From NCBI GenBank assembly GCA_016700315.1, contig CP065013.1:129449-193448 (forward strand): a DNA stretch of 64,000 nucleotides, written 5' to 3'. A model generated the notes under the pieces. It worked only from the letters and a program-made list of their open reading frames with translations, had not been told where the DNA came from and searched no databases. Below are positions 19,469 through 62,880 of the stretch, piece by piece. A program made the position numbers and the translations under genes. The stretch is from Candidatus Saccharimonadota bacterium. GTDB lineage: Bacteria; Patescibacteriota; Saccharimonadia; Saccharimonadales; SZUA-47. Each line of letters begins with the position of its first letter. The stretch's first letter is position 1.

Positions 19469-20388
19469 TTTGTTTTTTGATTTGATTGATTTTTGTATTG
19501 GTTTTTATCGCTCTTCCTCACCCTATTATTACTTGAAGGGTATTTGCGAGAGGAAGTGAGCTTTTATTCCCAATTTTTGTTTTACTTGTAGTCTTTGCTG
19601 CTGGACGCCGACTGCAGTAAACGTACTAAGTATGAACGCAGATCATTGTTTAAGCAATACTTATTTTATACAAAATGTATTCAGCCAAAGCTACCTTGAT
19701 TCTATACTTTCGTAGTCGAAATTTGTTGTAAGAATTGCATTTTTATACATTAAAACTTCCTTTCATTATTTTGAATTTTGCCTTTTAATTGTTGTGATTG
19801 CTACTACGTGTAGTCTAAAATGAAATATTTGTCAGGATTTATCCACAGCCCTTCGTACCCATACGAGGATTTTTCTAGGTACAACCATCATGCATTAGGC
19901 AAGAGAATAGCACTATGCAAAAAAGAAACTGCCAATCCTGCGCTAGGATTACGGTGCGCTCATATTGTTTTCCTTCGCAGCACGACCTGCTTATGGTTTT
20001 TATTTTAGATCTTTTTGTTTTTGTAGACCTATATTGATTTTACTACCACCATCAGAAAAATCAATGCTCTATTAGTGCTTCCAAACCCTGTATGCACTGT
20101 AAATAGCGCGATCCTTAAGACGCCATGCACATTATTAATAGTAATTGCGGCTTTTTGGAAACTATATTATTTCAATTTTATACAATTATGTAGCGGCAAC
20201 ATATCGAGCCTCTACCTACGTAGCTAGCAGATCACTACGTTTATGCTGTTTACTGTTGTTTAAGACTATACGTAAAACACTGCAACAGCTCCAGTAGAGT
20301 CCATTCCATTCCAGTCTATTTACTCAGTCTCGTCAATTTACCCCCCCCCACTCAAATCTTCACTCATGCAACTCCACACGCTTCTTTA

Positions 20389-20498
20389 CAGCACCACTCC
20401 AAGGACTACAGCACCACTCCAAGGACTATCCTTGGAATTGATTTAACAGATTAGTTTGCGCAGACAGCCACCCTTCCAAGGATAGTCCTTGGAGTGGT
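20389..20498. repeat. REP doublet, 3' flank of RAYT-1
   Basis: The 20-bp direct repeat cagcaccactccaaggacta occurs twice (20389-20428). Hairpin tCCAAGGActaTCCTTGGa lies at 20418-20436. An inverted copy tCCAAGGAtagTCCTTGGa at 20475-20493 abuts the RAYT stop. Confidence 0.8.
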
Positions 20499-21136
20499 TA
20501 TTTTGAGTTTGCTATAAGTTTATATAGAGCGTCCAGAACTTCTTTTTCCGGCTTGTAGTCTTCGACAAACTTTTCGTAGTCCCCACCTTCAAATAGCTCG
20601 AAAACTTTATGCTGCTTAACCCAATCTACCATCCATCCCCGAGTATAGTATGGCCAAGATGAATATGGCCAACTTTTATATTCTTTAGGGTTAAGATGGA
20701 TATATCGAGAAATGTGCAACAAATAAGGTTCATTCGTTATCTTGGAGGCCTTATACGGACCTTGAAACAAGTGCCCAATCCTCCTATGTCTTTTATTGAA
20801 ATACTTTGTATAGCTGGTGACAAGGCTTCGCATAAAGCTTTCCATCGCTTTTATACTATCGTTTTGAGCTATCATTAAATGAAAATGGTTAGGCATTAAA
20901 CAAAAAGCAATTAAATCAACCTCTCCGTTATAGTTTGGGTACCTTCTTTTTCGATCATCTACGTTGGTATTCTTTCCCAAATACCTCTGAAGTAGCATTA
21001 GGAAGTATTTATAGTCATGTTCGTCAATAAATATTCGCCGTCTATTAACCCCACGATTATAGATATGGTAATAAGAGTCTGTGTCGTAAAACTTAATCAC
21101 ATTCCTACTTGGCATTGCTTTACTATACCACAACAA
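20498..21136 (-). CDS. REP-associated tyrosine transposase (RAYT, IS200/Y1 HUH family), copy 1
   Basis: MPSRNVIKFYDTDSYYHIYNRG..., HUH motif PNHFHLMI, and a C-terminal Tyr region ISRYIHLNP. REP palindromes lie on both flanks. The likely true start is the ATG at 21115 (MPSRN...), matching the N-terminus of copy 2. Confidence 0.8.
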   Translation of the reverse strand: MLWYSKAMPSRNVIKFYDTDSYYHIYNRGVNRRRIFIDEHDYKYFLMLLQRYLGKNTNVDDRKRRYPNYNGEVDLIAFCLMPNHFHLMIAQNDSIKAMESFMRSLVTSYTKYFNKRHRRIGHLFQGPYKASKITNEPYLLHISRYIHLNPKEYKSWPYSSWPYYTRGWMVDWVKQHKVFELFEGGDYEKFVEDYKPEKEVLDALYKLIANSK

Positions 21137-21149
21137 CCCCTACTCTCGC

Positions 21150-21245
21150 TCTCCAAGTTACACTCCAAGGACTATCCTTGGAGTAATCAATATTTGTGTG
21201 AATTTATCTGTTAAATCTTTTCCAAGGATAGTCCTTGGAGCGGCA
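21150..21245. repeat. REP doublet, 5' flank of RAYT-1
   Basis: cactCCAAGGActaTCCTTGGagt at about 21160-21185 and the inverted copy tCCAAGGAtagTCCTTGGagcg at about 21220-21243. The adjoining atctgttaaatc mirrors gatttaacagat at 20441-20452. Confidence 0.8.
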
Positions 21246-21273: not shown

Positions 21274-24200
21274 TTAGCGCTGTTCGGTGGCAAATGGCTG
21301 GGAAAGTGAGCGGTTGAAAGTGCGACCATGGCGTAGCTGTTGGACTACCTGCGTAGCTTTATGTACGTCAGTTTTGAAAGTTATACTCCCTGATGTATTC
21401 TCTATCTGGATCACTCTGAAATATACGTTGTAGTTCGATCCTTCCGTCTCAAAATATTCAGATATTGTGCCTCCGGGCATACCGTTGAGTTTGCAACTTG
21501 AACTGGAACAAGAAGACGAAGAGTTGTCGGTCGCCACATCCTCCCAGGCGTTAGTAGTGCCAAAGCGATAAATCTGTAACTTTAGATCCCCCGCTGTGCC
21601 AGCAGTATTAGGTGGATAGTCAGTTAGCCCAGTCCAGGCAAGAGTTGGAGCTGTTGAGTTGTTACTAAATCTAGCTTTTTGCATCACCATTGGTCTTTCA
21701 TACACACCTGCGACCATTGTTTCATAGCCGCCATCTTCCTTAAGAGCACCACACAATCCGAGCATATCAAGCACTCCACTACAAGGATGGCTAGCTGGAG
21801 TAGCAGATGGTTGACCATTGCTCAAAACATAGCGACCTGAAGAGCGAATTGCATTCCTAGGAGCCGCAATGTTAACTGTAGAAAATGTTGGAGCAACGTT
21901 CTGGGTTTTATAAGTTGCTATACGCAAATCATTATTTGTAGAGTCGCCATAAACAACACTAGGGTTACCATTTGGATCAAAGGCGATCGCCGTACCAGCT
22001 CCTACGTTATTGGCAGTATCTACTGCCGTACAATTCCAAGCAGCCGAAGCACAGCCCGTTCCGCCACTGCCGACATACTTAGCCACTTTTAGATTGCCGT
22101 TAGTTAGATCGTAATAACTGACCCACGCATTACCCGTACTATCAAAACCAATAGAAGTGTCTTCGCCAACGTCACCTCCAGTATCTACCGCCGTACAACT
22201 CCAACTAGTATTAGAACAGCTCCCGCCAGTTCCTACATATTTTGTAACGCGAAGATTAAGCCCGGCTGCGTCGTAGTCATAGTGGCTAATCCACATAGCC
22301 CCAGTTGGATCGTAAGCAGCCGAGCTTGCATGCCCAACTGTGTTAGTAGGGTTGTCAACTGACCCACAGTCCCAAGCTGGTGAAGCATCACAACTACCAC
22401 CGTTGCCGACATATCTTGCAATTTTTAGATCGGTGCCAGTGGCATCCCGATAGCTAATTACTATATTATTGTCTTGGTCAAAAACCAAGGAGCTGTTATA
22501 GCCAACGTTGCCGGTGCTAGCAATGGTGTTACAATTCCAAGTAGAATCAACGCATCCTGTACCACCGCTGCCCACGTATTTGGCAACAAGGAGATCCGTG
22601 GCCGTAGAGTCACGAAAGCTGACCCAAGCCACTCCAGACTTATCAAAAGCTATAGATGTCCCGTTACTACCAGAATCTCCTGTATTATAAACCGCTGTGC
22701 AAGTCCAGGCGGTCGAAGCGCAACCCGTACCCCCACTACCGACGTATCTGGCCACCCTTAAACCAGTATTCGTTATGTCTCGGTAGGATACCCAGGGGTT
22801 ACCATTAGAGTCTATACCGATTGATGTAAATTGACCAACATCATTTGTAGTGTCAACCGAAGTACATGTCCATGATGATATGGCGCAGCCCGTCCCTCCA
22901 GTTCCTACGTAGTTCGCAACCCTTAAGTCACCATTGCCTTGATCATAGTAGCTAATCCATCCCACGCCGTTTCTGTCTACTGCATAAGAATTGTTCTCGG
23001 CAGCGCCTCCAACATTAGTGGCTGTATCGATAGCCGTACACCCCCAGTTTGTATCGGCACAATCTGGCATATTACTGATCGTACCTTTGGTCAGAATCTG
23101 GGTGGTATTATATTTTGTATCGTCTTCTATTGTAAGAGTTGGGAAAGCATCTATAGCGATTGGCCCGCGCCATCTACCTCTCTCTACACGCTCGCCATCA
23201 TCGGTAGTGATAAAGAAGCGATAGGTGCTATTGATAGTTGCCTGAGAGGTGTCAATCGTCCACGCTACTTCAGTACACTGCGCTGTCGAACTACCATCTG
23301 CCACGCTAACCCCTGTGCCTTCATCACTAGCAAAACTTTTACCATTATTCCAGGTACCGCCTCCGATGCAGTCTGCATCGTCCCGATTAGAAGTATCAGA
23401 GCTAGTGGTCATATCTGCGTGAGACTCCGCAAAAGCAGAAACTCCAGCTTGACTAGACGACAACGTAATAGCACCTAAGCTTTGCCTGAGGTAAGCCATC
23501 CTGACAGAATCGGTAGTCAGATCCTCGTGTGCTACCCATGGTACCCCATCTTGATCAAAGGCTAATGATGTAAAATATCCAACACTGTTGGTAGTCTCAA
23601 CAGTGGTACAAGACCACGCGCTTGATGCACAACCAGAACCGCCAGAACCAACAAAGCGAGCTAGTTTAAGCGCAGTATTGGTGATATCTTGATAGCTGAC
23701 CCATGGATTACCGATGGGATCAAAAGCCAGAGATGTGTAGCCTCCGACACTTCCAGACGTATCAACAGAAGTACATGTCCAAGCCGATGAGGCGCAACCA
23801 GAACCGCCAGAACCGACGTACTGCGCAACCTTCAGATCTAGATTGGTTGTGTCATAGTAACTAACCCATGGATTACCAGAAGGATCCATGGCAATTGATG
23901 TAAAACCACCAACGTTTCCGCCCGTATCAACAGAAGTGCAAGTCCAGTAGTTTGAGGCACAGCCAGTACCCGCACCGGCCCCGACGTATTGAGCGACCTT
24001 TAGATCGTTGTTGGTATTATCGTAGTATGCGATCCAAGGATTACCGTTATTGTCCAGTGCGAGCTTGCTGTATGAGCCAACATCTCCTGTTGAATCAATA
24101 GTTGTGCACTCCCATGACGCAAGCGTGCAGGCAGTACCGCTCGGATTATTACTGCCCGCAACCCGTAGATTGGTGTTGGTAACATCATAGTAACTAACCC

Positions 24201-25683
24201 AGGCATCACTACTAGAGCGGCTGATTGCTATGGAAGTGTCCTGGCCGGTATTTGCCGCTACTGAATCTACTGTGACACATTGCCAGTCGGTAGAGTCACA
24301 GCTGCCACCTGAACCGACATAGTAGGCAAGCCTGAGGGAACCAGCAGTGTTATCTTTATAAGCTATCCAGGGCTTGCCATTGCTATTCATCGCGATTGAG
24401 GCATAGCTACCGACATCGTTTGTTGTCACAACACCGCTTGTCGATGTACCTCCACCCTTGGTGTAGTAATCTACTCTCAAGTTACCAGCTGTAGTATTCC
24501 GTGTTGCCACCCAAGCCCCTCCAGAAGAATCTAGGGCTAGACCAATCTGGCTGTTTTGGGCTGAAGTATCGACGTTAAAGCACTGATAGTTAGTATCCAA
24601 ACAATTACCGGTCGGCGATTCTGGTTTTTGAAAGCCCTTAACCCGCCTCCAGACACCATCACCAGTGTCGTAAAAAAGAGCGAGGTTCTCTGTGTCCACT
24701 GGCCCACTAGTGTTTTTGAGCTGAGTTCTTAGTGTCAGTCTTTCGCCTTTACGAGCAGAGACAGCTGTGCTACCAGGTGCGAGCTGGCCAGCACCATCTC
24801 CTGAAGCATCATCCATTTCCCAGATGTAACCTTTGAGCGCTAACTGTGGCTTGTTCTTGTAATAGGTATAGGTGGCGCTAACATTGGCTTGATACAACCT
24901 AACGTCATCATCTATAACACTAGCGGCACCAACGCCAACAGCATTACGCGTGAATCTTATCCTAAGATCGTTTATCGCCGACCAGCCAGTAGTAAAGGTT
25001 GTTGTGTAGTTGGTAATTGTTGTAGTCAGAGTAGTTGTCTGAGCTGTCTGCAAAGCACCATTGATATAGATGTTGACACTCACTGAGTCACAATTTGGTG
25101 CCGTGCCTTGACAAGCTGTGTCTATTTTGGCGCGCCAGTTTACTACAACCTGAGTAGTCTGTACGAATGTTCCGTTGATGGTTGGATTTTGAATAGTGTA
25201 GTCGTCTATTTCTCCAGTAGTGTTGCCCGCCAAACCCGTATTAACATAGTCGGCATCGTTAGCTGAAGTCTCATCGACAAGTGTGTAGTGGTTGGTGCCA
25301 GAACAGGCTGCATTCGTACATAGTTCCCAGCCGGCTGTGTTGTCACCATCAGGATATAGATTGTTTGTAGCGGTGTAAAGAGCTTGCGCAGGAGTGCTAC
25401 TCCTGAAAAAGTTAAGCAGTGGAACCCCAACCAGCAAAAGAACTGCAACAAATGACGAAACTCTTCGGAAGAACAGTGGGCTCAGCTTATAACGCCGCCC
25501 AATGTTTGCGAATAAGTTTTTTACTCTCCTTGGCTTTTTAACTTGTATACTTTTGATCGGGAGATTAGTCAGTATTGAGCTGCCCATCGTAGACGTTCGA
25601 GAGAAATAACTAGTGTCTTTAGAGGATATGTCGGCCTCTCTTGGCTTTACCCCATCAAGATAGTTTGTTCTTTTATAACGCAT
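21274..25683 (-). CDS. Giant surface protein D (class 2): two blocks of ~46-aa propeller-like repeats
   Basis: ORF of 1,469 aa. The ATG lies 1 nt after the stop of gene E (TAAAATG). TM helix FVAVLLLVGVPLL. About 15 repeats follow the pattern GNPW[VI]SYYDxTNxDLKVAxYVGSGGxGCASxAWxCTxVDTxGxVGxxTSIAFD. The C-terminal tail is QQLRHGRTFNRSLSQPF. Confidence 0.8.
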   Translation of the reverse strand: MRYKRTNYLDGVKPREADISSKDTSYFSRTSTMGSSILTNLPIKSIQVKKPRRVKNLFANIGRRYKLSPLFFRRVSSFVAVLLLVGVPLLNFFRSSTPAQALYTATNNLYPDGDNTAGWELCTNAACSGTNHYTLVDETSANDADYVNTGLAGNTTGEIDDYTIQNPTINGTFVQTTQVVVNWRAKIDTACQGTAPNCDSVSVNIYINGALQTAQTTTLTTTITNYTTTFTTGWSAINDLRIRFTRNAVGVGAASVIDDDVRLYQANVSATYTYYKNKPQLALKGYIWEMDDASGDGAGQLAPGSTAVSARKGERLTLRTQLKNTSGPVDTENLALFYDTGDGVWRRVKGFQKPESPTGNCLDTNYQCFNVDTSAQNSQIGLALDSSGGAWVATRNTTAGNLRVDYYTKGGGTSTSGVVTTNDVGSYASIAMNSNGKPWIAYKDNTAGSLRLAYYVGSGGSCDSTDWQCVTVDSVAANTGQDTSIAISRSSSDAWVSYYDVTNTNLRVAGSNNPSGTACTLASWECTTIDSTGDVGSYSKLALDNNGNPWIAYYDNTNNDLKVAQYVGAGAGTGCASNYWTCTSVDTGGNVGGFTSIAMDPSGNPWVSYYDTTNLDLKVAQYVGSGGSGCASSAWTCTSVDTSGSVGGYTSLAFDPIGNPWVSYQDITNTALKLARFVGSGGSGCASSAWSCTTVETTNSVGYFTSLAFDQDGVPWVAHEDLTTDSVRMAYLRQSLGAITLSSSQAGVSAFAESHADMTTSSDTSNRDDADCIGGGTWNNGKSFASDEGTGVSVADGSSTAQCTEVAWTIDTSQATINSTYRFFITTDDGERVERGRWRGPIAIDAFPTLTIEDDTKYNTTQILTKGTISNMPDCADTNWGCTAIDTATNVGGAAENNSYAVDRNGVGWISYYDQGNGDLRVANYVGTGGTGCAISSWTCTSVDTTNDVGQFTSIGIDSNGNPWVSYRDITNTGLRVARYVGSGGTGCASTAWTCTAVYNTGDSGSNGTSIAFDKSGVAWVSFRDSTATDLLVAKYVGSGGTGCVDSTWNCNTIASTGNVGYNSSLVFDQDNNIVISYRDATGTDLKIARYVGNGGSCDASPAWDCGSVDNPTNTVGHASSAAYDPTGAMWISHYDYDAAGLNLRVTKYVGTGGSCSNTSWSCTAVDTGGDVGEDTSIGFDSTGNAWVSYYDLTNGNLKVAKYVGSGGTGCASAAWNCTAVDTANNVGAGTAIAFDPNGNPSVVYGDSTNNDLRIATYKTQNVAPTFSTVNIAAPRNAIRSSGRYVLSNGQPSATPASHPCSGVLDMLGLCGALKEDGGYETMVAGVYERPMVMQKARFSNNSTAPTLAWTGLTDYPPNTAGTAGDLKLQIYRFGTTNAWEDVATDNSSSSCSSSSCKLNGMPGGTISEYFETEGSNYNVYFRVIQIENTSGSITFKTDVHKATQVVQQLRHGRTFNRSLSQPFATEQR

Positions 25684-25684
25684 T

Positions 25685-28600
25685 TTAGTTTGTGTAGAGG
25701 TAGCTTACTTCGCCTACCCTGACCCCGTTATTACTTAGTGATAGAGTCTTAAAGCTTACGGTAATTATATCATTCGCCGCAAAACTACAGCCAGTTAGAG
25801 TGACTGACTGTTCAGTCCAGGTATTAGCCGTGCCAGGGAGAACAGAGACACTGGTAGCACATGCTGTTCCAGCATTATCACGAACCGTAACTTGTATGTC
25901 ATTATTAGCCGTGCTGGTCGAAGCACCGTAAACCCAGACTTTGAATGTACCAAAGCCTGAGCGATAGTCGCTAGGGATCTGATTTCGCACCACTATATCG
26001 TAGTCCTGGAGTGATGCCTGAGAACTGCTCCAGCTGTAGTAGTTGTGGCGATTTGTACCATCGTAGTCTGAGGACATGACACCGCTATTGTTGGTCCCGT
26101 CCGCAGTAAGTGTCCCGCCAGCAAACTCAGGGATCATGTAAATCTTTCTGCTGTTGAAATTGTTACTGCAATCACCCCAGTTACCGTTCTGGTAACAGCG
26201 CATCTTACCAGTGCTACTGTTGTAGTACATCGCACCGTTTACTCCGGTAGGGTCGGTTGCATCAGTCTTTGTGTCGAGAACTAATAGTGTCCCTGCTGTG
26301 TCGGAAACGCCAATCTGTACTTGCCCATCGAACTGAGATATTCCACTATCAACCCACAGTGCGTATGTGCTAGCCCCTTCAACATATACACCATAGTTAT
26401 TTGTACCCGAAGTCTGGTTCCTAACCAATACGCCATAGCTGTTGGTTATGGTGGAGGATGCACCCTTAATTGGGTTTTCTGCCATTAGGCCTACGGTTGA
26501 ACTAAGAGTAAATGCTACGTTAGATGTATCGACTCGCCCATATATGCCAACACCAGAATTAGGGCTAGTTGGGTTATCTATGTATGGTATGCCCGTAACA
26601 CCGTAACAGCCGAAGTTACAAGCAACCGTTGATCCAAAAGTGCTCTTTACTCGTAAGCCTTCGTTAGACACTTGTGCGGAGCCAATTCCAACATTACCTT
26701 CTCCGCCAACTATCAACCCAGTATAAGCTCCATTATTTACTGTGGCTCTAAGAGCATATTGGCTAGAGCTAGAGGACTGAATGTCAATAGAAACACCATT
26801 AGCTGTAGAGTTTGCTGCATCGAGCGTTGCAAGGTTTCCAGTGCCTGAGCCGGTAACGTTTAGAACAGCACCGGTTGATCCTGTAAACTGTTGGTTAAGC
26901 TCTAAGATATTTGAGGTGTCAGTACAAGTACCGACGGTTTGTGTACAGTTTGACTGAAGATTGGCCAGATCACCAGTTATGTTTAGCGTCGCACTGGTGG
27001 CGTTAACGGTATTGGATCTAGAGACGTTCAGCCAACGGCCTGAGTCTGTTTGTGTTGCAGAAGCCGTGGCTAGCGTTCGCGCAGGTGAAACGTTGAGCCA
27101 ATTGCCAGTAAACCCAGCTGTAATACTGCTGGCTGTACTTCCGATGTTAACTGCAGAAGTATTCGTTGCGGCGTTATTTGTTGCAAGATAGAGCAAACCA
27201 CTAGATGCTCCCGTACCTGCATTTGTAATAGTAAGAACGTTTGCTGCACCAGTGGAGTTTTGAGTAAGACTCAGCAAGGCCGCAGTAGAGCCCAGATCGT
27301 TATTAGTTATGTTAGCTAGAGCGGTACTGCTGTCATTGGTTGCATCGTTAGCTTGAGTGATATTCAGAAGATTTGTCGAACGCGCTCCACCACTAAGATC
27401 GCTGTTCAGTACTAGACTTCCGGCATTCGCTCCGTTGAATGTAGCTGCTCGTGCTGCAGTTACACTAAGTATCGAACTACCGCTATTCTGCAGATCTAAC
27501 AAGGTTCCTCCTGTAGCCGTTGTTAGTAAGGCCGTACCCGTATTATTACCATTATCTATCTTGAGCACACCACTAGCTACCGCACTACTAGAGTTCGTAA
27601 AACCATAGAGGTAGTTTGAAGCCGTAACAGACAGGGTTGAAGTATCGGCGGCGTTTTTTGCAAGGTAGTTACCGCCGCTTGATGGTGCAAACGCAGTACA
27701 AGTTAGAGTGTCGCCTATAGTAGTAACAGCCGTACCAGCTGCACAGGCTGTTGGGTAGTTAGATAAAGCTGTCCAGTCTACTGTACCAGCAGAGCTAATG
27801 GTAATAGCGTCATTGATGTAGGCATCAGCTATGACACTACCCTGCCAAGTACCGGCTGTAACGACGCCAGAGCTGTTAATTTGGAACAAGTCACCGTTAC
27901 CAACAGTGAATAGCGATGCAGGTGTCATGTCACCTATGCCAAAGTTACCAGCATTAATATAGCTGACCGAGGAATCCGCCCTGAGCCTGACTGTGTTAGT
28001 GCCAGCGCTATATAAGTCCAAAATACCAACGTTACCCACACCCGAACCGTCATAAAGACTGGCGGTTAGGGTACCTGTGTCACGCACCTCAAAAGAGCCT
28101 TGACCTGCAGTTGATGATGAGCGAACTGCACCAACTACCTCAAGTGGTGTGGCAGGGTTAGTCAAGCCAACACCAACCCTGTTGTTGGTAGCGTCTACAT
28201 ATAAGGTGTTGGTGTCGACCGCTAGGTTATTTGTAACCACAGCGTTCCCCAAGTTGTCTACCGTGAATAGGTCAGTTCCACCGTTATTCTCTACTACAAA
28301 GATATTGGATGTTTGAGTACCGTTAGCTTGGACCAGAAGTTGTATCTCGTCACTATCTCCATCTACAGCTAACTTAGCTAGGGCTACGGCTGAGCCGATG
28401 GTTACATCGTCAGTGCTGGTTTGTAGAGTGACAAGTGTACCAGTGTCGGTGAAACCAGAGGTGTTGGTGCCAACATTGTCTGTGGCACAGGCCCAGGCTG
28501 AACCGTTCCACTTCATGATGTCGTTAGTGCTACAGCCGTTCTGGGCGATGTTGCTAAAGAGGATAGTAGCACTAGCTAGATCAGTACCAGTAACTGTACC

Positions 28601-31600
28601 GTCGGTTATCTCACTACTGTCTATGCTTGAACCAAAGTCATTAAGTAGAGTCAGAGTAACTGTACCACCAAGGCTAACCGTGCCACCACCAGTTAGGCCA
28701 GTACCGGCTGTAACAGTGATGCCGCTGTTGACTAGTTTAGCGTTAGTAATAGTACCGTCAGCAATATCTGCAGCTACAATGGTGCCATCGACTATCTCGC
28801 TACTGTCTATGCTAGTTCCTAGTGTAGCGGCAATGGTTAGAGTATCTGTAGTACCGTTACCAGTAATAGTAATACCAGCTCCATCACTTAGAGTTAGAGT
28901 ATCTGTACTGCTATCTGCTACTGGGTTGGTGCCGTTAGATACAGCTATTGTTTCGAAGGAGTTACCTGCTCCGCCGCCCGTTGCATCAGTTGCACAGGCC
29001 CAGGCTGAACCGTTCCACTTCATGATGTCGTTAGTGCTACAGCCGTTCTGGGCGATGTTACTAAAGAGGATGGTTGAGCTGGCGATGTCAGTACCTATGA
29101 CAGTACCGTCAGTTATCTCGCTAGATTCTATGGTTTGACCTAGTTTAGTCACGTTAGCACTTAGTGCACCGTCAGCTACACTACCTGATGAGCTAATAGT
29201 TAGAGCATCACTAATGTTAGTGTCGGTTAATTGTCCAGTGTAGCTTAGACTACCTAGAGCTAGAGTACCGCTGCTGAGAGTGCCGGTGTTATCTGCATCG
29301 AAGATGTAGGCTTCAACTTGAGCTTCGGTTAGAACAGTATCCGAATCTGCATCTGTACCACAGTACCAAGCAGTACCATTGAACTTAATTACTTCTCCAT
29401 TATTACAAGAGTTACTAGCAATGTCGGCGAAGGTAATAGTACCGTTAGCAATATCTGCACTGCTGACTTCACCGTCAGTTATCTCACTAGATTCGATGCT
29501 AGTACCTAGGGTTGAGCTAATGACATTACCGCCGCTGATGTTAATGCCAGTACCAGCTGTGTAGGTAGTGTCGGTGTCAGTGTCGGTATCACAATTCCAG
29601 CCAGCAGCTAGTGGGCCAGCACCATCTGGATCGGTTGTGTAGTACTTGAGGACTTGAGCATCAGTGCTACAGGCAGCTAGTTTAGCAGTAGTGACTGCAC
29701 CGGCGTTAATAAGGGCGGTGGTTATGGCATTGTTAGCAATGTCGGCAGTAGCAATAGTACCGTCGACTATCTCGCTGCTGTCGATGCTGGTGCCAAGTGA
29801 AGACTGTAAGGTAACTGTACCACCAAGGCTAACCGTGCCACCACCAGTTAGGCCAGTACCGGCTGTGACGGTGACGCTACTGTTAACTAGTTTAGCGTTA
29901 GTAATAGTACCATCAGCAATATCTGCAGCTACAATGGTGCCGTCGACTATCTCGCTACTGTCTATGCTAGTTCCAAGTACAGCAGCAACTGTTAGAGTGT
30001 CGGTTGTAGCATCACCAGTTATGGTAATACCTGAACCTTCAGCGATGGTTATAGTGTCTGTAGTGCTATCTGCAACTGGGTCGGTGCCATTAGGTGCATC
30101 AAAGGTAGCGAAGGTATTAGTACCACTACCAGTGTTGTCTGTGGCACAGGCCCAGGCTGAACCGTTCCACTTCATGATGTCGTTAGTGCTACAGCCGTTC
30201 TGGGCGATGTTGCTAAAGAGGATAGTAGCACTAGCTAGATCAGTACCAGTAACTGTACCGTCTGTTATCTCGCTGCTGTCGATGCTGGTGCCAAGTGAAG
30301 ACTGTAAGGTAACTGTGCCACCAAGGCTGACACTACCACCACCAGTTAGTCCAGTACCAGCCGTAACTGTTATAGCGCTGTTAGCTAATTGAGAGTTAGT
30401 GATACCAGCAGAAGCTGAGATATCTGTAGTGGTAATAGTACCGTTAGCAATATCTGCACTGCTGACTTCACCGTCAGTTATCTCACTAGATTCGATGCTA
30501 GTACCTAGGGTTGAGCTAATGACATTACCGCCGCTGATGTTAATGCCAGTACCAGCTGTGTAGGTAGTGTCGGTGTCAGTGTCGGTATCACAATTCCAGC
30601 CAGCAGCTAGTGGGCCAGCACCATCTGGATCGGTTGTGTAGTACTTGAGGATTTGGCTGTCACTGCTACAGGCAGCTAGTTTAGCAGTAGTGACTGCACC
30701 GGCGTTAATAAGGGCGGTGGTTATGGCATTGTTAGCAATGTCGGCAGTAGCAATAGTACCGTCGACTATCTCGCTGCTGTCGATGCTGGTGCCAAGCGTT
30801 GTTTGTAGGGAGTTGCCAGAAATAGTCAGACCAGTACCAGTAAGGTCGGTGAAGGCATCCCCATTTACAGTAAAGGTGTCCCCAGTCTCTAGAGTAAGCC
30901 CACCATTCAATGTCGTAAGCCCAGTTACGGTTAGGCTTCCCGAGAAAGTAGCAGCCCCAGCACTGGATATTGTTAAGCGATCTACATTATTAGTCTCGAG
31001 TGCAAAGGCTGAAGAGTCATTAGTGCCAACAGTCAGCGGACCCGTCTGCCCGCCGTTATACACATCGCCTGCCCCGTTACCAGAACCAGCACAATTACCA
31101 CTGGTAGTACACACTACTGATGTATCAATTGCTAGGGCTCCTGAAGAAACTAACAAACCAGTACCAGTAAGATCAGTAAAAGCGTCCCCATTGACGGTCA
31201 GTGTGTCTCCTGTTTCAAGAGTGAGACCACCATTAGCTGTTAGTAGTCCTGTAATGGTCGGGCTAGATACTAATGCGACAGTTACCGTATCAGTTGCGCC
31301 AGCAGTAGTGCTAATGTTGCTTCCTGCTGCAATTGTAATGGTGTCTGTGTCACTTATTGTTTGGCTAGTACCAGAGCTACCTGCCAATGTCAGACTAGTA
31401 AAGCCGCCGCCGCCAGCCGTACAGCTGCCCCAAACGGCCGTTGTTCCGTCGCTTAGAAGACACTGGTTATTTGAGCCAATACCCAGCTTTGTCCAGGTAT
31501 TTGACGTTGCGCCGCCTAGCAGTAAGTCACCTTGTGCGACCGTACTTTGACCAGTGCCTCCATTGCCTGCGCCTAGTACGCCATTGACCTCAGCTGTGTT

Positions 31601-34600
31601 TAGGTCAATCGTTGAACCAAAAAAGTTATTCAATGTTACTGACCCACCTAGCGAAACTGAACCACCTCCTGTCAATCCTGTCCCAGCAGTTACTGTGACT
31701 GAGCTATTTGCAAGATCGACATTTGCTATCGTTCCATCTGCTATATCGGCTGACAATATTGTGCCGTCGACGATCTCACTTGTTGTAATATCTGCACCGA
31801 GAGTAGCAGCGATAGTCAGTGTATCAGTGGTGCCATCGCCCGTGATAGTAACACCTGATCCTTGAGCAAAAGTTATAGTATCCGTTGTTGAATCAGCAAC
31901 AGGGTTAGTGCCATTTGGTGTGGCAAAGGTAGCAAATGTGTCAGTTCCCGAGCCCGTTGCATCAGTTGCACAGGCCCAGGCTGAACCGTTCCACTTCATG
32001 ATGTCGTTAGTGCTACAGCCGTTCTGGGCGATGTTACTAAAGAGGATGGTTGAGCTGGCGATGTCAGTACCTATGACAGTACCGTCAGTTATCTCGCTAG
32101 ATTCTATGGTTTGACCTAGTTTAGTCACGTTAGCACTTAGTGCACCGTCAGCTACACTACCTGATGAGCTAATAGTTAGAGCATCACTAATGTTAGTGTC
32201 GGTTAATTGTCCAGTGTAGCTTAGACTACCTAGAGCTAGAGTACCGCTGCTGAGAGTGCCGGTGTTATCTGCATCGAAGATGTAGGCTTCAACTTGAGCT
32301 TCGGTTAGAACAGTATCCGAATCTGCATCTGTACCACAGTACCAAGCAGTACCATTGAACTTAATTACTTCTCCATTATTACAAGAGTTACTAGCAATGT
32401 CGGCGAAGGTAATAGTACCGTTAGCAATATCTGCACTGCTGACTTCACCGTCAGTTATCTCACTAGATTCAATGCTAGTACCTAGTGTTGAGCTAATGAC
32501 ATTACCGCCGCTGATGTTAATGCCAGTACCAGCTGTGTAGGTAGTGTCGGTGTCAGTGTCGGTATCACAATTCCAGCCAGCAGCTAGTGGGCCAGCACCG
32601 TCTGGATCAGTTGTGTAGTACTTGAGGATTTGGCTGTCACTGCTACAGTTAGCTAGTTTAGCTAGAGTGACTGCACCGTCAGTGATGTCTACAGTAGCAA
32701 TAGTACCGTTGGCAATATCTGCGCTAGTGATGGTGCCGTCTAGTATCTCGTCACTAGTAACAGCATCAGTATTAATATCTGCTGCGGTTATAGTGTTGTC
32801 TGCTATTAGGGTGGAGGTAATAGCACTAGTAGCTATGTTAGAAGTAGTAATAGTTGAGCTAGCAATGTCAGTACCAGTAACTGTACCGTCGGTTATCTCA
32901 CTACTGTCTATGCTTGAACCAAAGTCATTAAGTAGAGTCAGAGTAACTGTACCACCAAGGCTAACCGTGCCACCACCAGTTAGGCCAGTACCGGCTGTAA
33001 CAGTGATGCCGCTGTTGACTAGTTTAGCGTTAGTAATAGTAGCGTCAGCAATATCTGCAGCTACAATGGTGCCATCGACTATCTCGCTACTGTCTATGCT
33101 AGTTCCTAGTGTAGCGGCAATGGTTAGAGTATCTGTAGTACCGTTACCAGTAATAGTAATACCAGCTCCATCACTTAGGGTTAGAGTATCTGTACTGCTA
33201 TCTGCTACTGGGTTAGTACCGTTAGATACAGCGATTGTTTCGAAGGAGTTACCTGCTCCGCCGCCCGTTGCATCAGTTGCACAGGCCCAGGCTGAACCGT
33301 TCCACTTCATGATGTCGTTAGTGCTACAGCCGTTCTGGGCGATGTTACTAAAGAGGATGGTTGAGCTGGCGATGTCAGTACCTATGACAGTACCGTCAGT
33401 TATCTCGCTAGATTCTATGGTTTGACCTAGTTTAGTCACGTTAGCACTTAGTGCACCGTCAGCTACACTACCTGATGAGCTAATAGTTAGAGCATCACTA
33501 ATGTTAGTGTCGGTTAATTGTCCAGTGTAGCTTAGACTACCTAGAGCTAGAGTACCGCTGCTGAGAGTGCCGGTGTTATCTGCATCGAAGATGTAGGCTT
33601 CAACTTGAGCTTCGGTTAGAACAGTATCCGAATCTGCATCTGTACCACAGTACCAAGCAGTACCATTGAACTTAATTACTTCTCCATTATTACAAGAGTT
33701 ACTAGCAATGTCGGCGAAGGTAATAGTACCGTTAGCAATATCTGCACTGCTGACTTCACCGTCAGTTATCTCACTAGATTCGATGCTAGTACCTAGGGTT
33801 GAGCTAATGACATTACCGCCGCTGATGTTAATGCCAGTACCAGCTGTGTAGGTAGTGTCGGTGTCAGTGTCGGTATCACAATTCCAGCCAGCAGCTAGTG
33901 GGCCAGCACCGTCTGGATCAGTTGTGTAGTACTTGAGGATTTGGCTGTCACTGCTACAGTTAGCTAGCTTAGCTAGAGTGACTGCACCGTCAGTGATGTC
34001 TACAGTAGCAATAGTACCGTTGGCAATATCTGCGCTAGTGATGGTGCCGTCTAGTATCTCGTCACTAGTAACAGCATCAGTATTAATATCTGCTGCGGTT
34101 ATAGTGTTGTCTGCTATTAGGGTGGAGGTAATAGCACTAGTAGCTATGTTAGAAGTAGTAATAGTTGAGCTAGCAATGTCAGTACCAGTAATTGTACCAT
34201 CAGTTATCTCACTACTGTCTATGCTTGAACCAAAGTCATTAAGTAGAGTCAGAGTAACTGTACCACCAAGGCTAACCGTGCCACCACCAGTTAGGCCAGT
34301 ACCGGCTGTAACAGTGATGCCGCTGTTGACTAGTTTAGCGTTAGTAATAGTAGCGTCAGCAATATCTGCAGCTACAATGGTGCCATCGACTATCTCGCTA
34401 CTGTCTATGCTAGTTCCTAGTGTAGCGGCAATGGTTAGAGTATCTGTCGTACCGTTACCAGTAATAGTAATACCAGCTCCATCACTTAGGGTTAGAGTAT
34501 CTGTACTACTATCTGCTACTGGGTTAGTACCGTTAGATACAGCGATTGTTTCGAAGGAGTTACCTGCTCCGCCGCCCGTTGCATCAGTTGCACAGGCCCA

Positions 34601-34750
34601 GGCTGAACCGTTCCACTTCATGATGTCATTAGTGCTACAGCCGTTCTGGGCGATGTTACTAAAGAGGATGGTTGAGCTGGCGATGTCAGTACCTATGACA
34701 GTACCGTCAGTTATCTCGCTAGATTCTATGGTTTGACCTAGTTTAGTCAC
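25685..34750 (-). CDS. Giant surface protein E, 3' segment (frame is open up to ~35815; the track start is only the first in-frame GTG)
   Basis: Same frame (end coordinate mod 3 = 1) as the 5' segment 38111-40711. I checked 34751-35797 codon by codon against the neighbouring repeat copy and found no stop. Ends with the class-1 C-terminal module. Confidence 0.8.
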   Translation of the reverse strand: MTKLGQTIESSEITDGTVIGTDIASSTILFSNIAQNGCSTNDIMKWNGSAWACATDATGGGAGNSFETIAVSNGTNPVADSSTDTLTLSDGAGITITGNGTTDTLTIAATLGTSIDSSEIVDGTIVAADIADATITNAKLVNSGITVTAGTGLTGGGTVSLGGTVTLTLLNDFGSSIDSSEITDGTITGTDIASSTITTSNIATSAITSTLIADNTITAADINTDAVTSDEILDGTITSADIANGTIATVDITDGAVTLAKLANCSSDSQILKYYTTDPDGAGPLAAGWNCDTDTDTDTTYTAGTGINISGGNVISSTLGTSIESSEITDGEVSSADIANGTITFADIASNSCNNGEVIKFNGTAWYCGTDADSDTVLTEAQVEAYIFDADNTGTLSSGTLALGSLSYTGQLTDTNISDALTISSSGSVADGALSANVTKLGQTIESSEITDGTVIGTDIASSTILFSNIAQNGCSTNDIMKWNGSAWACATDATGGGAGNSFETIAVSNGTNPVADSSTDTLTLSDGAGITITGNGTTDTLTIAATLGTSIDSSEIVDGTIVAADIADATITNAKLVNSGITVTAGTGLTGGGTVSLGGTVTLTLLNDFGSSIDSSEITDGTVTGTDIASSTITTSNIATSAITSTLIADNTITAADINTDAVTSDEILDGTITSADIANGTIATVDITDGAVTLAKLANCSSDSQILKYYTTDPDGAGPLAAGWNCDTDTDTDTTYTAGTGINISGGNVISSTLGTSIESSEITDGEVSSADIANGTITFADIASNSCNNGEVIKFNGTAWYCGTDADSDTVLTEAQVEAYIFDADNTGTLSSGTLALGSLSYTGQLTDTNISDALTISSSGSVADGALSANVTKLGQTIESSEITDGTVIGTDIASSTILFSNIAQNGCSTNDIMKWNGSAWACATDATGSGTDTFATFATPNGTNPVADSTTDTITFAQGSGVTITGDGTTDTLTIAATLGADITTSEIVDGTILSADIADGTIANVDLANSSVTVTAGTGLTGGGSVSLGGSVTLNNFFGSTIDLNTAEVNGVLGAGNGGTGQSTVAQGDLLLGGATSNTWTKLGIGSNNQCLLSDGTTAVWGSCTAGGGGFTSLTLAGSSGTSQTISDTDTITIAAGSNISTTAGATDTVTVALVSSPTITGLLTANGGLTLETGDTLTVNGDAFTDLTGTGLLVSSGALAIDTSVVCTTSGNCAGSGNGAGDVYNGGQTGPLTVGTNDSSAFALETNNVDRLTISSAGAATFSGSLTVTGLTTLNGGLTLETGDTFTVNGDAFTDLTGTGLTISGNSLQTTLGTSIDSSEIVDGTIATADIANNAITTALINAGAVTTAKLAACSSDSQILKYYTTDPDGAGPLAAGWNCDTDTDTDTTYTAGTGINISGGNVISSTLGTSIESSEITDGEVSSADIANGTITTTDISASAGITNSQLANSAITVTAGTGLTGGGSVSLGGTVTLQSSLGTSIDSSEITDGTVTGTDLASATILFSNIAQNGCSTNDIMKWNGSAWACATDNTGSGTNTFATFDAPNGTDPVADSTTDTITIAEGSGITITGDATTDTLTVAAVLGTSIDSSEIVDGTIVAADIADGTITNAKLVNSSVTVTAGTGLTGGGTVSLGGTVTLQSSLGTSIDSSEIVDGTIATADIANNAITTALINAGAVTTAKLAACSTDAQVLKYYTTDPDGAGPLAAGWNCDTDTDTDTTYTAGTGINISGGNVISSTLGTSIESSEITDGEVSSADIANGTITFADIASNSCNNGEVIKFNGTAWYCGTDADSDTVLTEAQVEAYIFDADNTGTLSSGTLALGSLSYTGQLTDTNISDALTISSSGSVADGALSANVTKLGQTIESSEITDGTVIGTDIASSTILFSNIAQNGCSTNDIMKWNGSAWACATDATGGGAGNSFETIAVSNGTNPVADSSTDTLTLSDGAGITITGNGTTDTLTIAATLGTSIDSSEIVDGTIVAADIADGTITNAKLVNSGITVTAGTGLTGGGTVSLGGTVTLTLLNDFGSSIDSSEITDGTVTGTDLASATILFSNIAQNGCSTNDIMKWNGSAWACATDNVGTNTSGFTDTGTLVTLQTSTDDVTIGSAVALAKLAVDGDSDEIQLLVQANGTQTSNIFVVENNGGTDLFTVDNLGNAVVTNNLAVDTNTLYVDATNNRVGVGLTNPATPLEVVGAVRSSSTAGQGSFEVRDTGTLTASLYDGSGVGNVGILDLYSAGTNTVRLRADSSVSYINAGNFGIGDMTPASLFTVGNGDLFQINSSGVVTAGTWQGSVIADAYINDAITISSAGTVDWTALSNYPTACAAGTAVTTIGDTLTCTAFAPSSGGNYLAKNAADTSTLSVTASNYLYGFTNSSSAVASGVLKIDNGNNTGTALLTTATGGTLLDLQNSGSSILSVTAARAATFNGANAGSLVLNSDLSGGARSTNLLNITQANDATNDSSTALANITNNDLGSTAALLSLTQNSTGAANVLTITNAGTGASSGLLYLATNNAATNTSAVNIGSTASSITAGFTGNWLNVSPARTLATASATQTDSGRWLNVSRSNTVNATSATLNITGDLANLQSNCTQTVGTCTDTSNILELNQQFTGSTGAVLNVTGSGTGNLATLDAANSTANGVSIDIQSSSSSQYALRATVNNGAYTGLIVGGEGNVGIGSAQVSNEGLRVKSTFGSTVACNFGCYGVTGIPYIDNPTSPNSGVGIYGRVDTSNVAFTLSSTVGLMAENPIKGASSTITNSYGVLVRNQTSGTNNYGVYVEGASTYALWVDSGISQFDGQVQIGVSDTAGTLLVLDTKTDATDPTGVNGAMYYNSSTGKMRCYQNGNWGDCSNNFNSRKIYMIPEFAGGTLTADGTNNSGVMSSDYDGTNRHNYYSWSSSQASLQDYDIVVRNQIPSDYRSGFGTFKVWVYGASTSTANNDIQVTVRDNAGTACATSVSVLPGTANTWTEQSVTLTGCSFAANDIITVSFKTLSLSNNGVRVGEVSYLYTN
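28480..30800 (-). repeat. Second block of the same repeat family within gene E (one near-identical unit plus diverged or partial units)
   Basis: 28980-29560 is essentially identical to 31950-32540. The landmark at 29379 lies 2,976 nt from the next copy, so this block is not in register with the main array. The ~1.15-kb unique segment 30800-31950 separates it from the main array. Confidence 0.8.
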
Positions 34751-37700
34751 GTTAGCACTTAGTGCACCGTCAGCTACACTACCTGATGAGCTAATAGTTA
34801 GAGCATCACTAATGTTAGTGTCGGTTAATTGTCCAGTGTAGCTTAGACTACCTAGAGCCAGAGTACCGCTGCTGAGAGTGCCGGTGTTATCTGCATCGAA
34901 GATGTAGGCTTCAACTTGAGCTTCGGTTAGAACAGTATCCGAATCTGCATCTGTACCACAGTACCAAGCAGTACCATTGAACTTAATTACTTCTCCATTA
35001 TTACAAGAGTTACTAGCAATGTCGGCGAAGGTAATAGTACCGTTAGCAATATCTGCACTGCTGACTTCACCGTCAGTTATCTCACTAGATTCAATGCTAG
35101 TACCTAGTGTTGAGCTAATGACATTACCGCCGCTGATGTTAATGCCAGTACCAGCTGTGTAGGTAGTGTCGGTGTCAGTGTCGGTATCACAATTCCAGCC
35201 AGCAGCTAGTGGGCCAGCACCGTCTGGATCGGTTGTGTAGTACTTGAGGATTTGGCTGTCACTGCTACAGTTAGCTAGTTTAGCTAGAGTGACTGCACCG
35301 TCAGTGATGTCTACAGTAGCAATAGTACCGTTGGCAATATCTGCGCTAGTGATGGTGCCGTCTAGTATCTCGTCACTAGTAACAGCATCAGTATTAATAT
35401 CTGCTGCGGTTATAGTGTTGTCTGCTATTAGGGTGGAGGTAATAGCACTAGTAGCTATGTTAGAAGTAGTAATAGTTGAGCTAGCAATGTCGGTACCAGT
35501 AACTGTACCATCGGTTATCTCACTACTGTCTATGCTTGAAGCAAAGTCAGTACGTAGAGTCAGAGTAACTGTGCCACCAAGGCTAGCCGTGCCACCACCA
35601 GTTAGGCCAGTACCGGCTGTAACAGTGATGCCGCTGTTGACTAGTTTAGCGTTAGTAATAGTAGCGTCAGCAATATCTGCAGCTACAATGGTGCCATCGA
35701 CTATCTCGCTACTGTCTATGCTAGTTCCTAGTGTAGCGGCAATGGTTAGAGTATCTGTAGTACCGTTACCAGTAATAGTAATACCAGCTCCATCACTTAG
35801 GTTAGAGTATCTGTACTACTATCTGCTACTGGGTTAGTACCGTTAGATACAGCGATTGTTTCGAAGGAGTTACCTGCTCCGCCGCCCGTTGCATCAGTTG
35901 CACAGGCCCAGGCTGAACCGTTCCACTTCATGATGTCGTTAGTGCTACAGCCGTTCTGGGCGATGTTGCTAAAGAGGATGGTTGAGCTGGCGATGTCAGT
36001 ACCTATGACAGTACCGTCAGTTATCTCGCTAGATTCTATGGTTTGACCTAGTTTAGTCACGTTAGCACTTAGTGCACCGTCAGCTACACTACCTGATGAG
36101 CTAATAGTTAGAGCATCACTAATGTTAGTGTCGGTTAATTGTCCAGTGTAGCTTAGACTACCTAGAGCTAGAGTACCGCTGCTGAGAGTGCCGGTGTTAT
36201 CTGCATCGAAGATGTAGGCTTCAACTTGAGCTTCGGTTAGAACAGTATCCGAATCTGCATCTGTACCACAGTACCAAGCAGTACCATTGAACTTAATTAC
36301 TTCTCCATTATTACAAGAGTTACTAGCAATGTCGGCGAAGGTAATAGTACCGTTAGCAATATCTGCACTGCTGACTTCACCGTCAGTTATCTCACTAGAT
36401 TCAATGCTAGTACCTAGTGTTGAGCTAATGACATTACCGCCGCTGATGTTAATGCCAGTACCAGCTGTGTAGGTAGTGTCGGTGTCAGTGTCGGTATCAC
36501 AATTCCAGCCAGCAGCTAGTGGGCCAGCACCGTCTGGATCGGTTGTGTAGTACTTGAGGATTTGGCTGTCACTGCTACAGTTAGCTAGCTTAGCTAGAGT
36601 GACTGCACCGTCAGTGATGTCTACAGTAGCAATAGTACCGTTGGCAATATCTGCGCTAGTGATGGTGCCGTCTAGTATCTCGTCACTAGTAACAGCATCA
36701 GTATTAATATCTGCTGCGGTTATAGTGTTGTCTGCTATTAGGGTGGAGGTAATAGCACTAGTAGCTATGTTAGAAGTAGTAATAGTTGAGCTAGCAATGT
36801 CGGTACCAGTAATAGTGCCATTAGTTATCTCACTACTGTCTATGCTTGAACCAAAGTCATTAAGTAGAGTCAGAGTAACTGTACCACCAAGGCTAACTGT
36901 GCCACCACCAGTTAGGCCAGTGCCGGCTGTAACAGTGATGCCGCTGTTGACTAGTTTAGCGTTAGTAATAGTAGCGTCAGCAATATCTGCAGCTACAATG
37001 GTGCCATCGACTATCTCGCTACTGTCTATGCTAGTTCCTAGTGTAGCGGCAATGGTTAGAGTATCTGTCGTACCGTTACCAGTAATAGTAATACCAGCTC
37101 CATCACTTAGGGTTAGAGTATCTGTACTACTATCTGCAACTGGGTTAGTACCGTTAGATACAGCGATTGTTTCGAAGGAGTTACCTGCTCCGCCGCCCGT
37201 TGCATCAGTTGCACAGGCCCAGGCTGAACCGTTCCACTTCATGATGTCACCACTGCCACAGCCGTTCTGGGCGATGTTGCTAAAGAGGATGGTTGAGCTG
37301 GCGATGTCAGTACCTATGACAGTACCGTCTGTTATCTCGCTAGATTCTATGGTTTGACCTAGTTTAGTCACGTTAGCACTTAGTGCACCGTCAGCTACAC
37401 TACCTGATGAGCTAATAGTTAGAGCATCACTAATGTTAGTGTCGGTTAATTGTCCGGTGTAGCTTAGACTACCTAGAGCTAGAGTACCGCTGCTGAGAGT
37501 GCCGGTGTTATCTGCATCGAAGATGTAGGCTTCAACTTGAGCTTCGGTTAGAACAGTATCCGAATCTGCGTCTGTACCACAGTACCAAGCAGTACCATTG
37601 AACTTAATTACTTCTCCATTATTACAAGAGTTACTAGCAATGTCGGCGAAGGTAATAGTACCGTTAGCAATATCTGCACTGCTGACTTCACCGTCAGTTA

Positions 37701-55648: not shown

Positions 55649-55713
55649 AACAAAACTAGCTTAACAGATTTAAGAGAGAAAAGACATAGTTAAAAACAGT
55701 CTTTATCAAAACC

Positions 55714-62123: not shown

Positions 62124-62159
62124 TATTCATAGCTTTTTTAACAGATCAAATTCAATAAT

Positions 62160-62214
62160 TCACATTTTCCTTATCTGTATAAGGACGGACCTTATACAGA
62201 TAAGGAAAATGTGA
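62160..62214. repeat. 55-nt perfect hairpin (25-bp stem, 5-nt loop), cognate REP of RAYT-2
   Basis: tCACATTTTCCTTATCTGTATAAGG-acgga-CCTTATACAGATAAGGAAAATGTGa. It lies 12 nt upstream of the RAYT-2 ATG and is followed by TATTTT, so it may also terminate fmt. Confidence 0.85.
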
Positions 62215-62837: not shown

Positions 62838-62880
62838 CACATTTTTCGCCCCTGTATAAGGACGGACCTTATACGAAGAG
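62838..62880. repeat. Second copy of the RAYT-2 REP core, 3' flank
   Basis: TTCACATTTTT-cgccc-CTGTATAAGGacggaCCTTATAC-g has the same core and same 5' tag as 62158-62200. It overlaps the stop of the convergent ORF at 62869. Confidence 0.7.

Follow-up and report, generated by a model that had tools for sequence, protein, structure and literature searches.

Genes for HUH/Y1 transposases have been described in several arrangements. In insertion sequences (ISs) of the IS200/IS605 type (TnpAY1 subclass 1.1; IS608, ISDra2), a small tnpA gene has hairpins close to either end, and its product has a core of ∼150 aa with the motifs Y---Q and DH[VI]H. In REPtrons, which hold the genes of repetitive extragenic palindrome (REP)-associated tyrosine transposases (RAYTs, also TnpAREP; E. 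coli yafM, Pseudomonas; subclasses 2.2 and 2.5, Bertels Groups 2 and 3), a single-copy Y1 gene with the class 2 signature lies between REP doublets, and one paralogue goes with one palindrome (PMC6006769). TIRtrons consist of TIRYT genes with terminal inverted repeats at their flanks (Di Nocera et al. 2013, PMC3733652). Quentin et al. 2018 (PMC6006769) tentatively equate these TIRYTs with TnpAY1 subclass 2.1 (Bertels Group 1), for which their Table 1 gives the signature NH[YF]H, FQ, Y[IV]HLNP and SS tail, and in which they found no REP-like sequences or structures. In subclass 2.4, from Cyanobacteria and Bacteroidetes, REPs are inserted in frame within the tnpAREP gene (PMC6006769). Here we analyse a stretch of 64,000 nt from a Candidatus Saccharimonadota bacterium (contig CP065013.1; hereafter the window), which holds two Y1 genes: P1, the gene under study, and P2. 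On balance, we favour the reading that P1 is a resident, vertically inherited class-2 HUH/Y1 endonuclease-ligase for single-stranded DNA (ssDNA), belonging to a clade found across the candidate phyla radiation (CPR). The palindromes that flank P1 would be its cognate DNA sites, and the whole would therefore be a unit of the REPtron/TIRtron type. An earlier note on this DNA had supposed that such an arrangement was uncharacterised in CPR-like genomes; indeed, our literature searches gave no description joining RAYT or IS200 with the CPR.

The P1 gene and its flanking hairpins

P1 had been noted as a 205-aa HUH/Y1 gene with two oppositely oriented hairpins on each side, and both parts of this description hold. 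Pfam Y1_Tnp matches the protein (E = 3.4e-10), and the palindrome CTCCAAGGA-cta-TCCTTGGAG is present in four copies, two per side of the gene. The gene and the features around it are as follows.

20498..21115, minus strand: P1, HUH/Y1 gene (TIRYT-like, TnpAY1 class 2), 205 aa from the ATG at 21115
20417..20437, plus strand: outer downstream hairpin, 1 mismatch
20474..20494, minus strand: inner downstream hairpin, 1 mismatch
21163..21183, plus strand: inner upstream hairpin, the sole exact 21-mer; 10-bp stem with flanking bases
21220..21240, minus strand: outer upstream hairpin, TTCCAAGGA-tag-TCCTTGGAG on the plus strand; 1 mismatch
20413..20498, unstranded: doublet downstream of P1; 25-nt arms, 100% complementary, 36-nt spacer; the inner arm abuts the stop codon
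21161..21243, unstranded: doublet upstream of P1 (in gene orientation); 20-nt arms, 100% complementary, 38-nt spacer
20440..20451, plus strand: motif GATTTAACAGAT, 2 nt past the outer hairpin and 22 nt ahead of the inner hairpin
21206..21217, minus strand: ATCTGTTAAATC, complement of GATTTAACAGAT, separated from the outer hairpin by 2 nt and from the inner by exactly 22 nt
21151..21162, unstranded: 12-nt partial tandem duplication of the hairpin arm, CTCCAAGTTACA; in the window and strains L005, L006 and L008; 7 other strains lack it
20387..20426, unstranded: two tandem 20-nt copies of TACAGCACCACTCCAAGGAC, a partial hairpin-arm duplication; window strain only

The 21-mer CTCCAAGGACTATCCTTGGAG has one exact copy and three copies with one mismatch each, all at the stem foot. 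Elsewhere in the 64 kb it is absent even at ≤3 mismatches, and dinucleotide shuffles expect 0.00 copies. The two doublets mirror each other, the left one (20414-20496) being 80% reverse-complementary to the right one (21161-21243) over 83 nt. As ssDNA, each is predicted to fold into one long hairpin (downstream doublet: −27.5/−28.4 kcal/mol, z −9.5/−10.3; upstream doublet: −22.4/−23.5 kcal/mol, z −7.5/−8.8). These long hairpins also account for the outcome of the Rfam search, which returned only sub-threshold look-alikes of miRNA precursors. The layout first described, including the GATTTAACAGAT next to the outer hairpins, was thus accurate, but the foot mismatch in three of the four copies and the strain-specific 20-nt duplication had gone unmentioned. 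Such partial duplications of a hairpin arm vary between strains that are 96-99% identical. Among strains, the hairpin stems are invariant and the spacers variable. Similar half-site-plus-hairpin arrangements recur in the loci L014, L120 and L122.

Motifs, predicted fold and class of the protein

Judged by its sequence and modelled structure, P1 is an intact protein with complete catalytic motifs and a predicted TnpArep fold. Its HUH motif is N76-H77-F78-H79 (NHFH) and the catalytic Tyr138 lies within RYIHLNP; furthermore, P1 has an LFQG motif and a tail motif, S152-S153. Across 28 homologues, H77, H79 and Y138 are invariant, F78 is nearly so, and LFQG and the Ser-Ser tail are conserved. Beyond Y1_Tnp, Pfam gave no match in P1, the C-terminal region included. 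A single-sequence search of the PDB returned nothing, and a profile search only matches at E-values of 0.06-0.5; since these searches gave nothing firm, we used structure prediction and Foldseek. The top PDB fold match to the AlphaFold2 model (pLDDT 90) was 4er8 (E = 5e-7), a structure of TnpArep in complex with a REP hairpin; the TnpA structures of IS608 and ISDra2 came next. In the model, the C-terminus is a single long helix (residues 180-204).

All four motifs of subclass 2.1 (NHFH, FQ, YIHLNP and SS) are present and conserved in P1. With RAYT and TIRYT references rebuilt from the alignment that accompanies Di Nocera et al. 2013 (PMC3733652), phmmer scored P1 at 34-78 bits against 13 TIRYTs and at 18-26 bits against classical RAYTs (Pseudomonas, Stenotrophomonas). 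Neither the Acidobacteria TIRYTs nor the E. coli RayT gave a phmmer match with P1, the latter having a profile score of 13.5 bits. Similarly, the NCBIfam model REP_Tyr_transpos (NF047646) gave P1 42.1 bits, below its cutoff of 80. A rough neighbour-joining tree, built on few references and lacking an outgroup from subclass 1.1, grouped P1, P2 and the other CPR sequences in one clade, sister to the main TIRYT groups. By these sequence comparisons, P1 is placed beside the lineage of TIRYTs, TnpAY1 subclass 2.1 and Bertels Group 1, and not among the classical RAYTs. The original view of the locus as a REP/RAYT architecture therefore stood for the layout, which is REPtron-like and has its own palindromes, but not for the protein, which is TIRYT-like (42 vs 80 bits). 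The hairpins also lack a 5′ GTAG.

P1 combines traits of several known systems. Like TIRtrons, it has the motifs NH[YF]H, FQ, Y[IV]HLNP and SS, and its top sequence matches are TIRYTs; its flanks are 83-nt, 80% inverted repeats that are self-complementary and arranged as dimers, and both gene and repeats have a low copy number. Unlike the TIRYTs, which have ∼220-240 aa, P1 has ∼205 aa. It lacks their C-terminal helix-turn-helix (HTH)-like domain (Bac_DnaA_C / HTH_23 / HTH_28-like), alignments to the TIRYT references ending at about residue 144 to 174, and it carries a 15-aa insertion after helix A. Its repeats lack the GGGGWSAS motif, and its relatives mostly have short direct hairpins, not inverted repeats. 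With respect to subclass 2.1, it differs in having hairpins, where none are reported, and in its CPR hosts.

The likeness to REPtrons consists of a single-copy Y1 gene between REP doublets, doublets that fold as long, REPIN-like hairpins, the nearest solved fold being that of TnpArep (4er8), a palindrome of its own for each paralogue, and the presence of HUH and the class 2 motif Y---NP (signature: PMC6006769). In contrast to REPtrons, the P1 hairpins have no GT[AG]G at their 5′ foot, the 5′ flanks of the four copies being ACCA, ACA, ACCA and CCG; GTAG-CAAGG... is present in some relatives with 61-64% identity. P1 also has FQ (LFQG) where RAYTs have a conserved WQ/WE guide-recognition motif, scores below the NCBIfam cutoff, and has no demonstrated high-copy dispersed family. 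With IS200/IS605 TnpA, finally, it shares the HUH/Y1 fold and hairpins near both ends of a small tnpA gene, in its relatives mostly on the same strand. It differs from them in YIHLNP (Y---NP), NHFH and a length of 205 aa, against Y---Q, DH[VI]H and the ∼150-aa core, in lacking tnpB and multiple identical copies, and in a position that is syntenic between species.

A second Y1 gene with its own hairpin

The second Y1 gene of the window, P2, is likewise bracketed by a hairpin.

62227..62835, plus strand: P2, Y1_Tnp protein of 202 aa, 42% identical to P1; NHFH and RYIHLNP intact; after def-fmt
62160..62214, unstranded: palindrome upstream of P2; perfect 25-bp stem around GTATAAGG-acgga-CCTTATAC, ending 12 nt before the ATG
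62854..62874, plus strand: hairpin GTATAAGG-acgga-CCTTATAC downstream of P2, 19 nt past the stop; direct with respect to the upstream copy
62138-62146: TTAACAGAT upstream of P2
62800-62811: exact 12-mer GATTTAACAGAT, in frame within the 3′ end of P2

Outside its bracket, the P2 hairpin has no copies in the window and the adjoining sequence. The MAG GCA_041909835.1 has an identical P2. The window holds five copies of TTAACAGAT (20443, 21206, 55661, 62138 and 62803) against ∼0.7 expected. Four of them are tied to the two Y1 brackets, and the copy at 55661 is unexplained. In three doublets of the P1 type, exactly 22 non-conserved nt separate TTAACAGAT from the next hairpin. In IS608, the cleavage site lies at a fixed distance from the hairpin, and by analogy TTAACAGAT could be a cleavage or target site. 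Alternatively, it could be a remnant of the 3′ end of the gene; the doublets would then be deletion derivatives of a hairpin-gene-hairpin unit.

Hairpin brackets across the family

Homologues of P1 are numerous: a word-index search found >8000, and a profile search of 50%-identity representatives gave 1184 clusters at E ≤ 1e-30 and 16,520 at E ≤ 1e-10, with length conserved. As related loci we took the 80 best from GTDB species genomes, and flank statistics were computed over 81 loci. The 80 loci are mostly in metagenome-assembled genomes (MAGs) of Patescibacteria (Saccharibacteria, Woese-, Levy-, Davies- and Shapirobacteria, and others); many are in MAGs labelled otherwise, chiefly as "uncultured Gammaproteobacteria".

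We scored a flank repeat as an exact repeat of ≥11 nt shared by the 200 nt before the gene and the 150 nt after it. Such a repeat was present in 66 of the 81 loci, compared with 1% of control segments, and 36 of the 66 repeats contained a stem of ≥5 bp, compared with 3% of shuffles. By orientation, 41 were direct, 18 inverted and 7 ambiguous. The hairpins are locus-specific, and many keep an A(A/G)GG..CC(T/C)T apex, usually AAGG..CCTT. They typically lie 30-70 nt ahead of the start and 1-30 nt past the stop, often at +1. The hairpins are private to their gene, with a structure that is conserved while the sequence changes between species and between paralogues, and their distances from the start and stop codons are fixed.

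In 21 of the 66 loci, the locus-specific hairpin is also found inside the gene, at two hot spots: codons ∼50-60 and directly after HLNP. Intragenic hairpins were seen in L029, L031 (10478-10494), L037 (10470-10490), L044, L055 and 16 other loci. These intragenic copies, which are in frame where read, recall subclass 2.4; the CPR hot spots, however, lie after helix A and directly after HLNP instead of between HuH and Y, the protein signatures are unlike, and P1 itself has no internal hairpin.

Start codon, promoter and a possible role in expression

The P1 open reading frame (ORF) has a maximal extent of 20498..21136 (minus strand; TTG start, 212 aa), but the MPSRN N-terminus that results from the ATG at 21115 agrees with the conserved N-terminus of the homologues. 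Ahead of this ATG lies one promoter-like element.

21122..21130, minus strand: extended −10-like box TGgTATAGT, ending 6 nt ahead of the P1 ATG

At the equivalent place, the 75% orthologue (L097) has TGgTATAAT, likewise 6 nt from the ATG. There is no Shine-Dalgarno sequence ahead of the P1 ATG, and the P1 mRNA is therefore probably leaderless. TTAACA was considered as a −35 box and rejected on inspection, as no −10 box lies at the proper spacing. A position-wise count over the family gave CCTTG at −37..−33, an A-rich stretch at −31..−29, TAtaaT at −12..−7 and T at −1. From CCTTG and TAtaaT it follows that the 3′ arm of the upstream hairpin would form the −35 element of a leaderless-mRNA promoter. 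P1 and its 75% orthologue deviate from this pattern in having the extended −10 box instead, and the P1 hairpin is out of the −35 register of the family.

These observations bear on the possibility that the palindromes are mainly expression signals, namely a promoter or operator, an insulator against read-through from the neighbouring gene D, or a stabiliser of mRNA 3′ ends, and that the protein perhaps has a role in cellular ssDNA processing. The family-wide CCTTG fits it as a −35-like element with 17-nt spacing to TAtaaT and a leaderless start, as do the downstream hairpins that often begin at +1 past the stop, the very low hairpin copy number, and the position of the doublet upstream of P1, which lies 31 nt past the stop of D (21274..25683). 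However, none of the hairpins precedes a T-run on the minus, transcribed strand, and terminator-like matches were found on the opposite strand only, so that the proposal that the hairpins act as an intrinsic terminator for D is unsupported. Signals of expression would also not be expected to carry the same hairpin at both ends, to change together with the protein, and to occur inside genes, in other ORFs and at purB (see below), and P1 itself departs from the promoter pattern in both its register and its −10 type. We therefore regard this explanation as unlikely.

Synteny and variation among strains

The exact P1 protein was found in at least 23 contigs (28 blocks indexed), with the same context in all ten places displayed. 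Its 75%-identical orthologue follows an orthologue of gene D (D 79% identical), and orthologues with 61-67% identity also lie within the giant-gene cluster, in the same parAB region. In L103, giant genes are followed by the RAYT and then by parA-parB; parA of the window is located at 757..1512, and the genes past it are in the same order as in L103. Four MAGs have co-resident paralogues, which are 45-67% identical, each with a different hairpin, and no pair among the 80 loci is >80% identical. As far as this sequence context indicates, P1 behaves as a resident gene and not as an insertion sequence.

An obvious alternative is that the whole hairpin-gene-hairpin unit is an autonomous IS200-like IS that moves by peel-and-paste and is by chance single-copy here. 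A tnpA-only gene with sub-terminal hairpins at its two flanks would suit such an element, as would the direct orientation of the hairpins in 41 of the 81 loci, as for left and right ends, and the genes bordering the RAYT, which vary between species; the placement of TTAACAGAT at a fixed 22 nt 5′ of the hairpin is, by analogy, reminiscent of the IS608 cleavage site. Yet the protein has Y---NP (class 2), not Y---Q, the position is common to orthologues at 61-75% identity, and near-identical copies are found neither in the window, nor in the ∼82 kb of extended sequence, nor among co-resident paralogues (42-67% identical). Furthermore, the downstream doublet of P1 is inverted in the window and direct in the 75% orthologue, unlike the fixed ends of an IS. 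The variant with an ordinary IS200/IS605 TnpA accompanied by a tnpB remnant, which the earlier note had named as the opposing case, fits no better: the small ORFs flanking P1 include no tnpB-like ORF or remnant, and identical copies are likewise lacking. Overall, an autonomous IS seems distinctly improbable to us, more so than a purely regulatory role of the palindromes.

Among strains, P1 has 10 variable sites, all of them at third codon positions (synonymous), a result biased by the look-up, which returns identical proteins only. The sequences suggest purifying selection on the paralogues. If P1 were the decaying remnant of an element that was once active and is now functionless, this would explain the lack of dispersed copies nearby, the foot mismatches in three of the four hairpins and the scars left by arm duplications. 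Such decay is nevertheless a very remote prospect: the ORF is unbroken and keeps every catalytic residue, the at least 23 contigs encode an identical protein despite the 10 synonymous sites, strains differ in the spacers but not in the stems, and the family comprises 1184 clusters (E ≤ 1e-30) of conserved length.

Copies of the hairpins beyond the brackets

Neither hairpin type was found outside its bracket in the window or in the adjoining 8.8 kb and 9.2 kb, which were recovered from other assemblies (∼82 kb in total). If copies were distributed at random over a genome of ∼1 Mb (size assumed), this absence would bound their number at roughly 30. The 19-mer core had no match in the GTDB representative genomes, which do not include the source genome. 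In JGI metagenomes it was found at six loci, five of them single matches resembling chance. In two independent assemblies, L014 and L111, a hairpin of the P1 type with the TAACAGAT motif lies upstream of purB. The interior of L014 is 100% identical to the RAYT-upstream doublet of strain L005 and differs from that of L111, which has the same purB flank; L014 may therefore be a chimeric join, and its value as proof of a dispersed REPIN is weakened. Contigs that end at hairpins (L014, L097-L102) were also considered as a sign of repeats, a reading we rejected because contigs break at the unique 55-nt palindrome before P2 as well. In relatives, a few extra hairpin copies occur within 10 kb, some inside other ORFs. 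Since the orientation of doublets flips, arm duplications differ and extra copies exist, the hairpins appear to change and occasionally to move, at low copy. The searches do not demonstrate a dispersed REP family of >10 copies, and wide dispersal in this genome is unproven.

The giant-gene neighbourhood

P1 had also been proposed as the driver or a relic of a duplication, on the assumption that it sits between two duplicated modules, those of the giant genes D and C. This tempting reading has to be corrected. D has no detectable similarity to the other large window proteins compared, C among them, and C is common with a 3021-aa protein only over its C-terminal ∼270 aa. A clear recent duplication does exist elsewhere, between 25685..34750 and 35797..40711 (98% aa identity), where ORFs of 778 aa (35797-38133) and 866 aa (38111-40711) are 98% identical to parts of the 3021-aa giant protein; it does not abut P1. 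Related species differ in the giant genes that border the RAYT, so that the P1 site lies in a rearrangement-prone cluster, an association that is a correlation only.

Three further observations concern the neighbourhood. A C-run (G-run on the gene strand) at 20341-20349, in the 0.9-kb non-coding stretch upstream of C, has 6, 7 or 9 bases among near-identical strains and could be a phase-variation-like tract. A 334-aa ORF at 56995-57999 (minus strand) matches by position and length an HTH_28/rve (DDE integrase-type transposase) gene in the co-linear L112; its counterpart in L118 has only 238 aa, and it is unrelated to the Y1 genes. The giant 2142-aa protein at 6450-12878 (minus strand) has Kelch/beta-propeller Pfam matches in the co-linear L123-L125.

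Proposed mode of action and implications

In the reading we favour, with P1 as a resident enzyme and the palindromes as its sites, P1 would bind the AAGG..CCTT apex of the hairpin on ssDNA, for example on the lagging-strand template. Tyr138 would cut nearby, with a metal held by His77 and His79, and the DNA would be rejoined. By this activity, P1 may occasionally copy, flip or move hairpin units, though not its own gene. As the upstream hairpin lies beside or on the P1 promoter, autoregulation would be possible. The copy number of the hairpin would be low here, unlike that of proteobacterial REPs.

Several points weigh against this reading. Most relatives have single direct hairpins, which resemble IS200 ends and suit a mobile unit equally well. 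Neither hairpin type was found outside its bracket in the ∼82 kb, and the purB site is known from short contigs of uncertain organism, one of which, as described above, may be chimeric. A cleavage site or guide sequence was not identifiable, enzyme activity in the clade of P1 is a prediction from sequence and fold, and the synonymous-only variation carries the bias of the look-up. Finally, the report of no REP-like sequences in subclass 2.1 (PMC6006769) bears either on our assignment of P1 or on its generality.

What is new here is a known arrangement in a new group of bacteria, with a protein that lacks the C-terminal domain, hairpins with an AAGG apex and no GTAG, a hairpin on the promoter side and a very low copy number. 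A broader generalisation, to which we give limited credence, is that Patescibacteria widely retain a short TIRYT-like Y1 enzyme together with a hairpin of AAGG apex, placed in the promoter region, at the 3′ end and, in a third of the lineages, within the reading frame, and that this pair is passed on by vertical descent in a handful of copies. If true, this would contradict the published view of a subclass without a hairpin partner, and would provide a minimal model for the role of domesticated Y1 transposases.

No function of RAYT and TIRYT enzymes for their hosts has, to our knowledge, been established. At least ∼1200 clusters, mostly from ultra-small CPR genomes, make up a clade that retains the gene with very few hairpin copies. 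Together with the apparent purifying selection, this suggests that enzyme and hairpin are kept for something other than the mass proliferation of repeats. With an enzyme of 205 aa and a hairpin of 21 nt, the system is compact and would be suited to studies of binding, cleavage and autoregulation.

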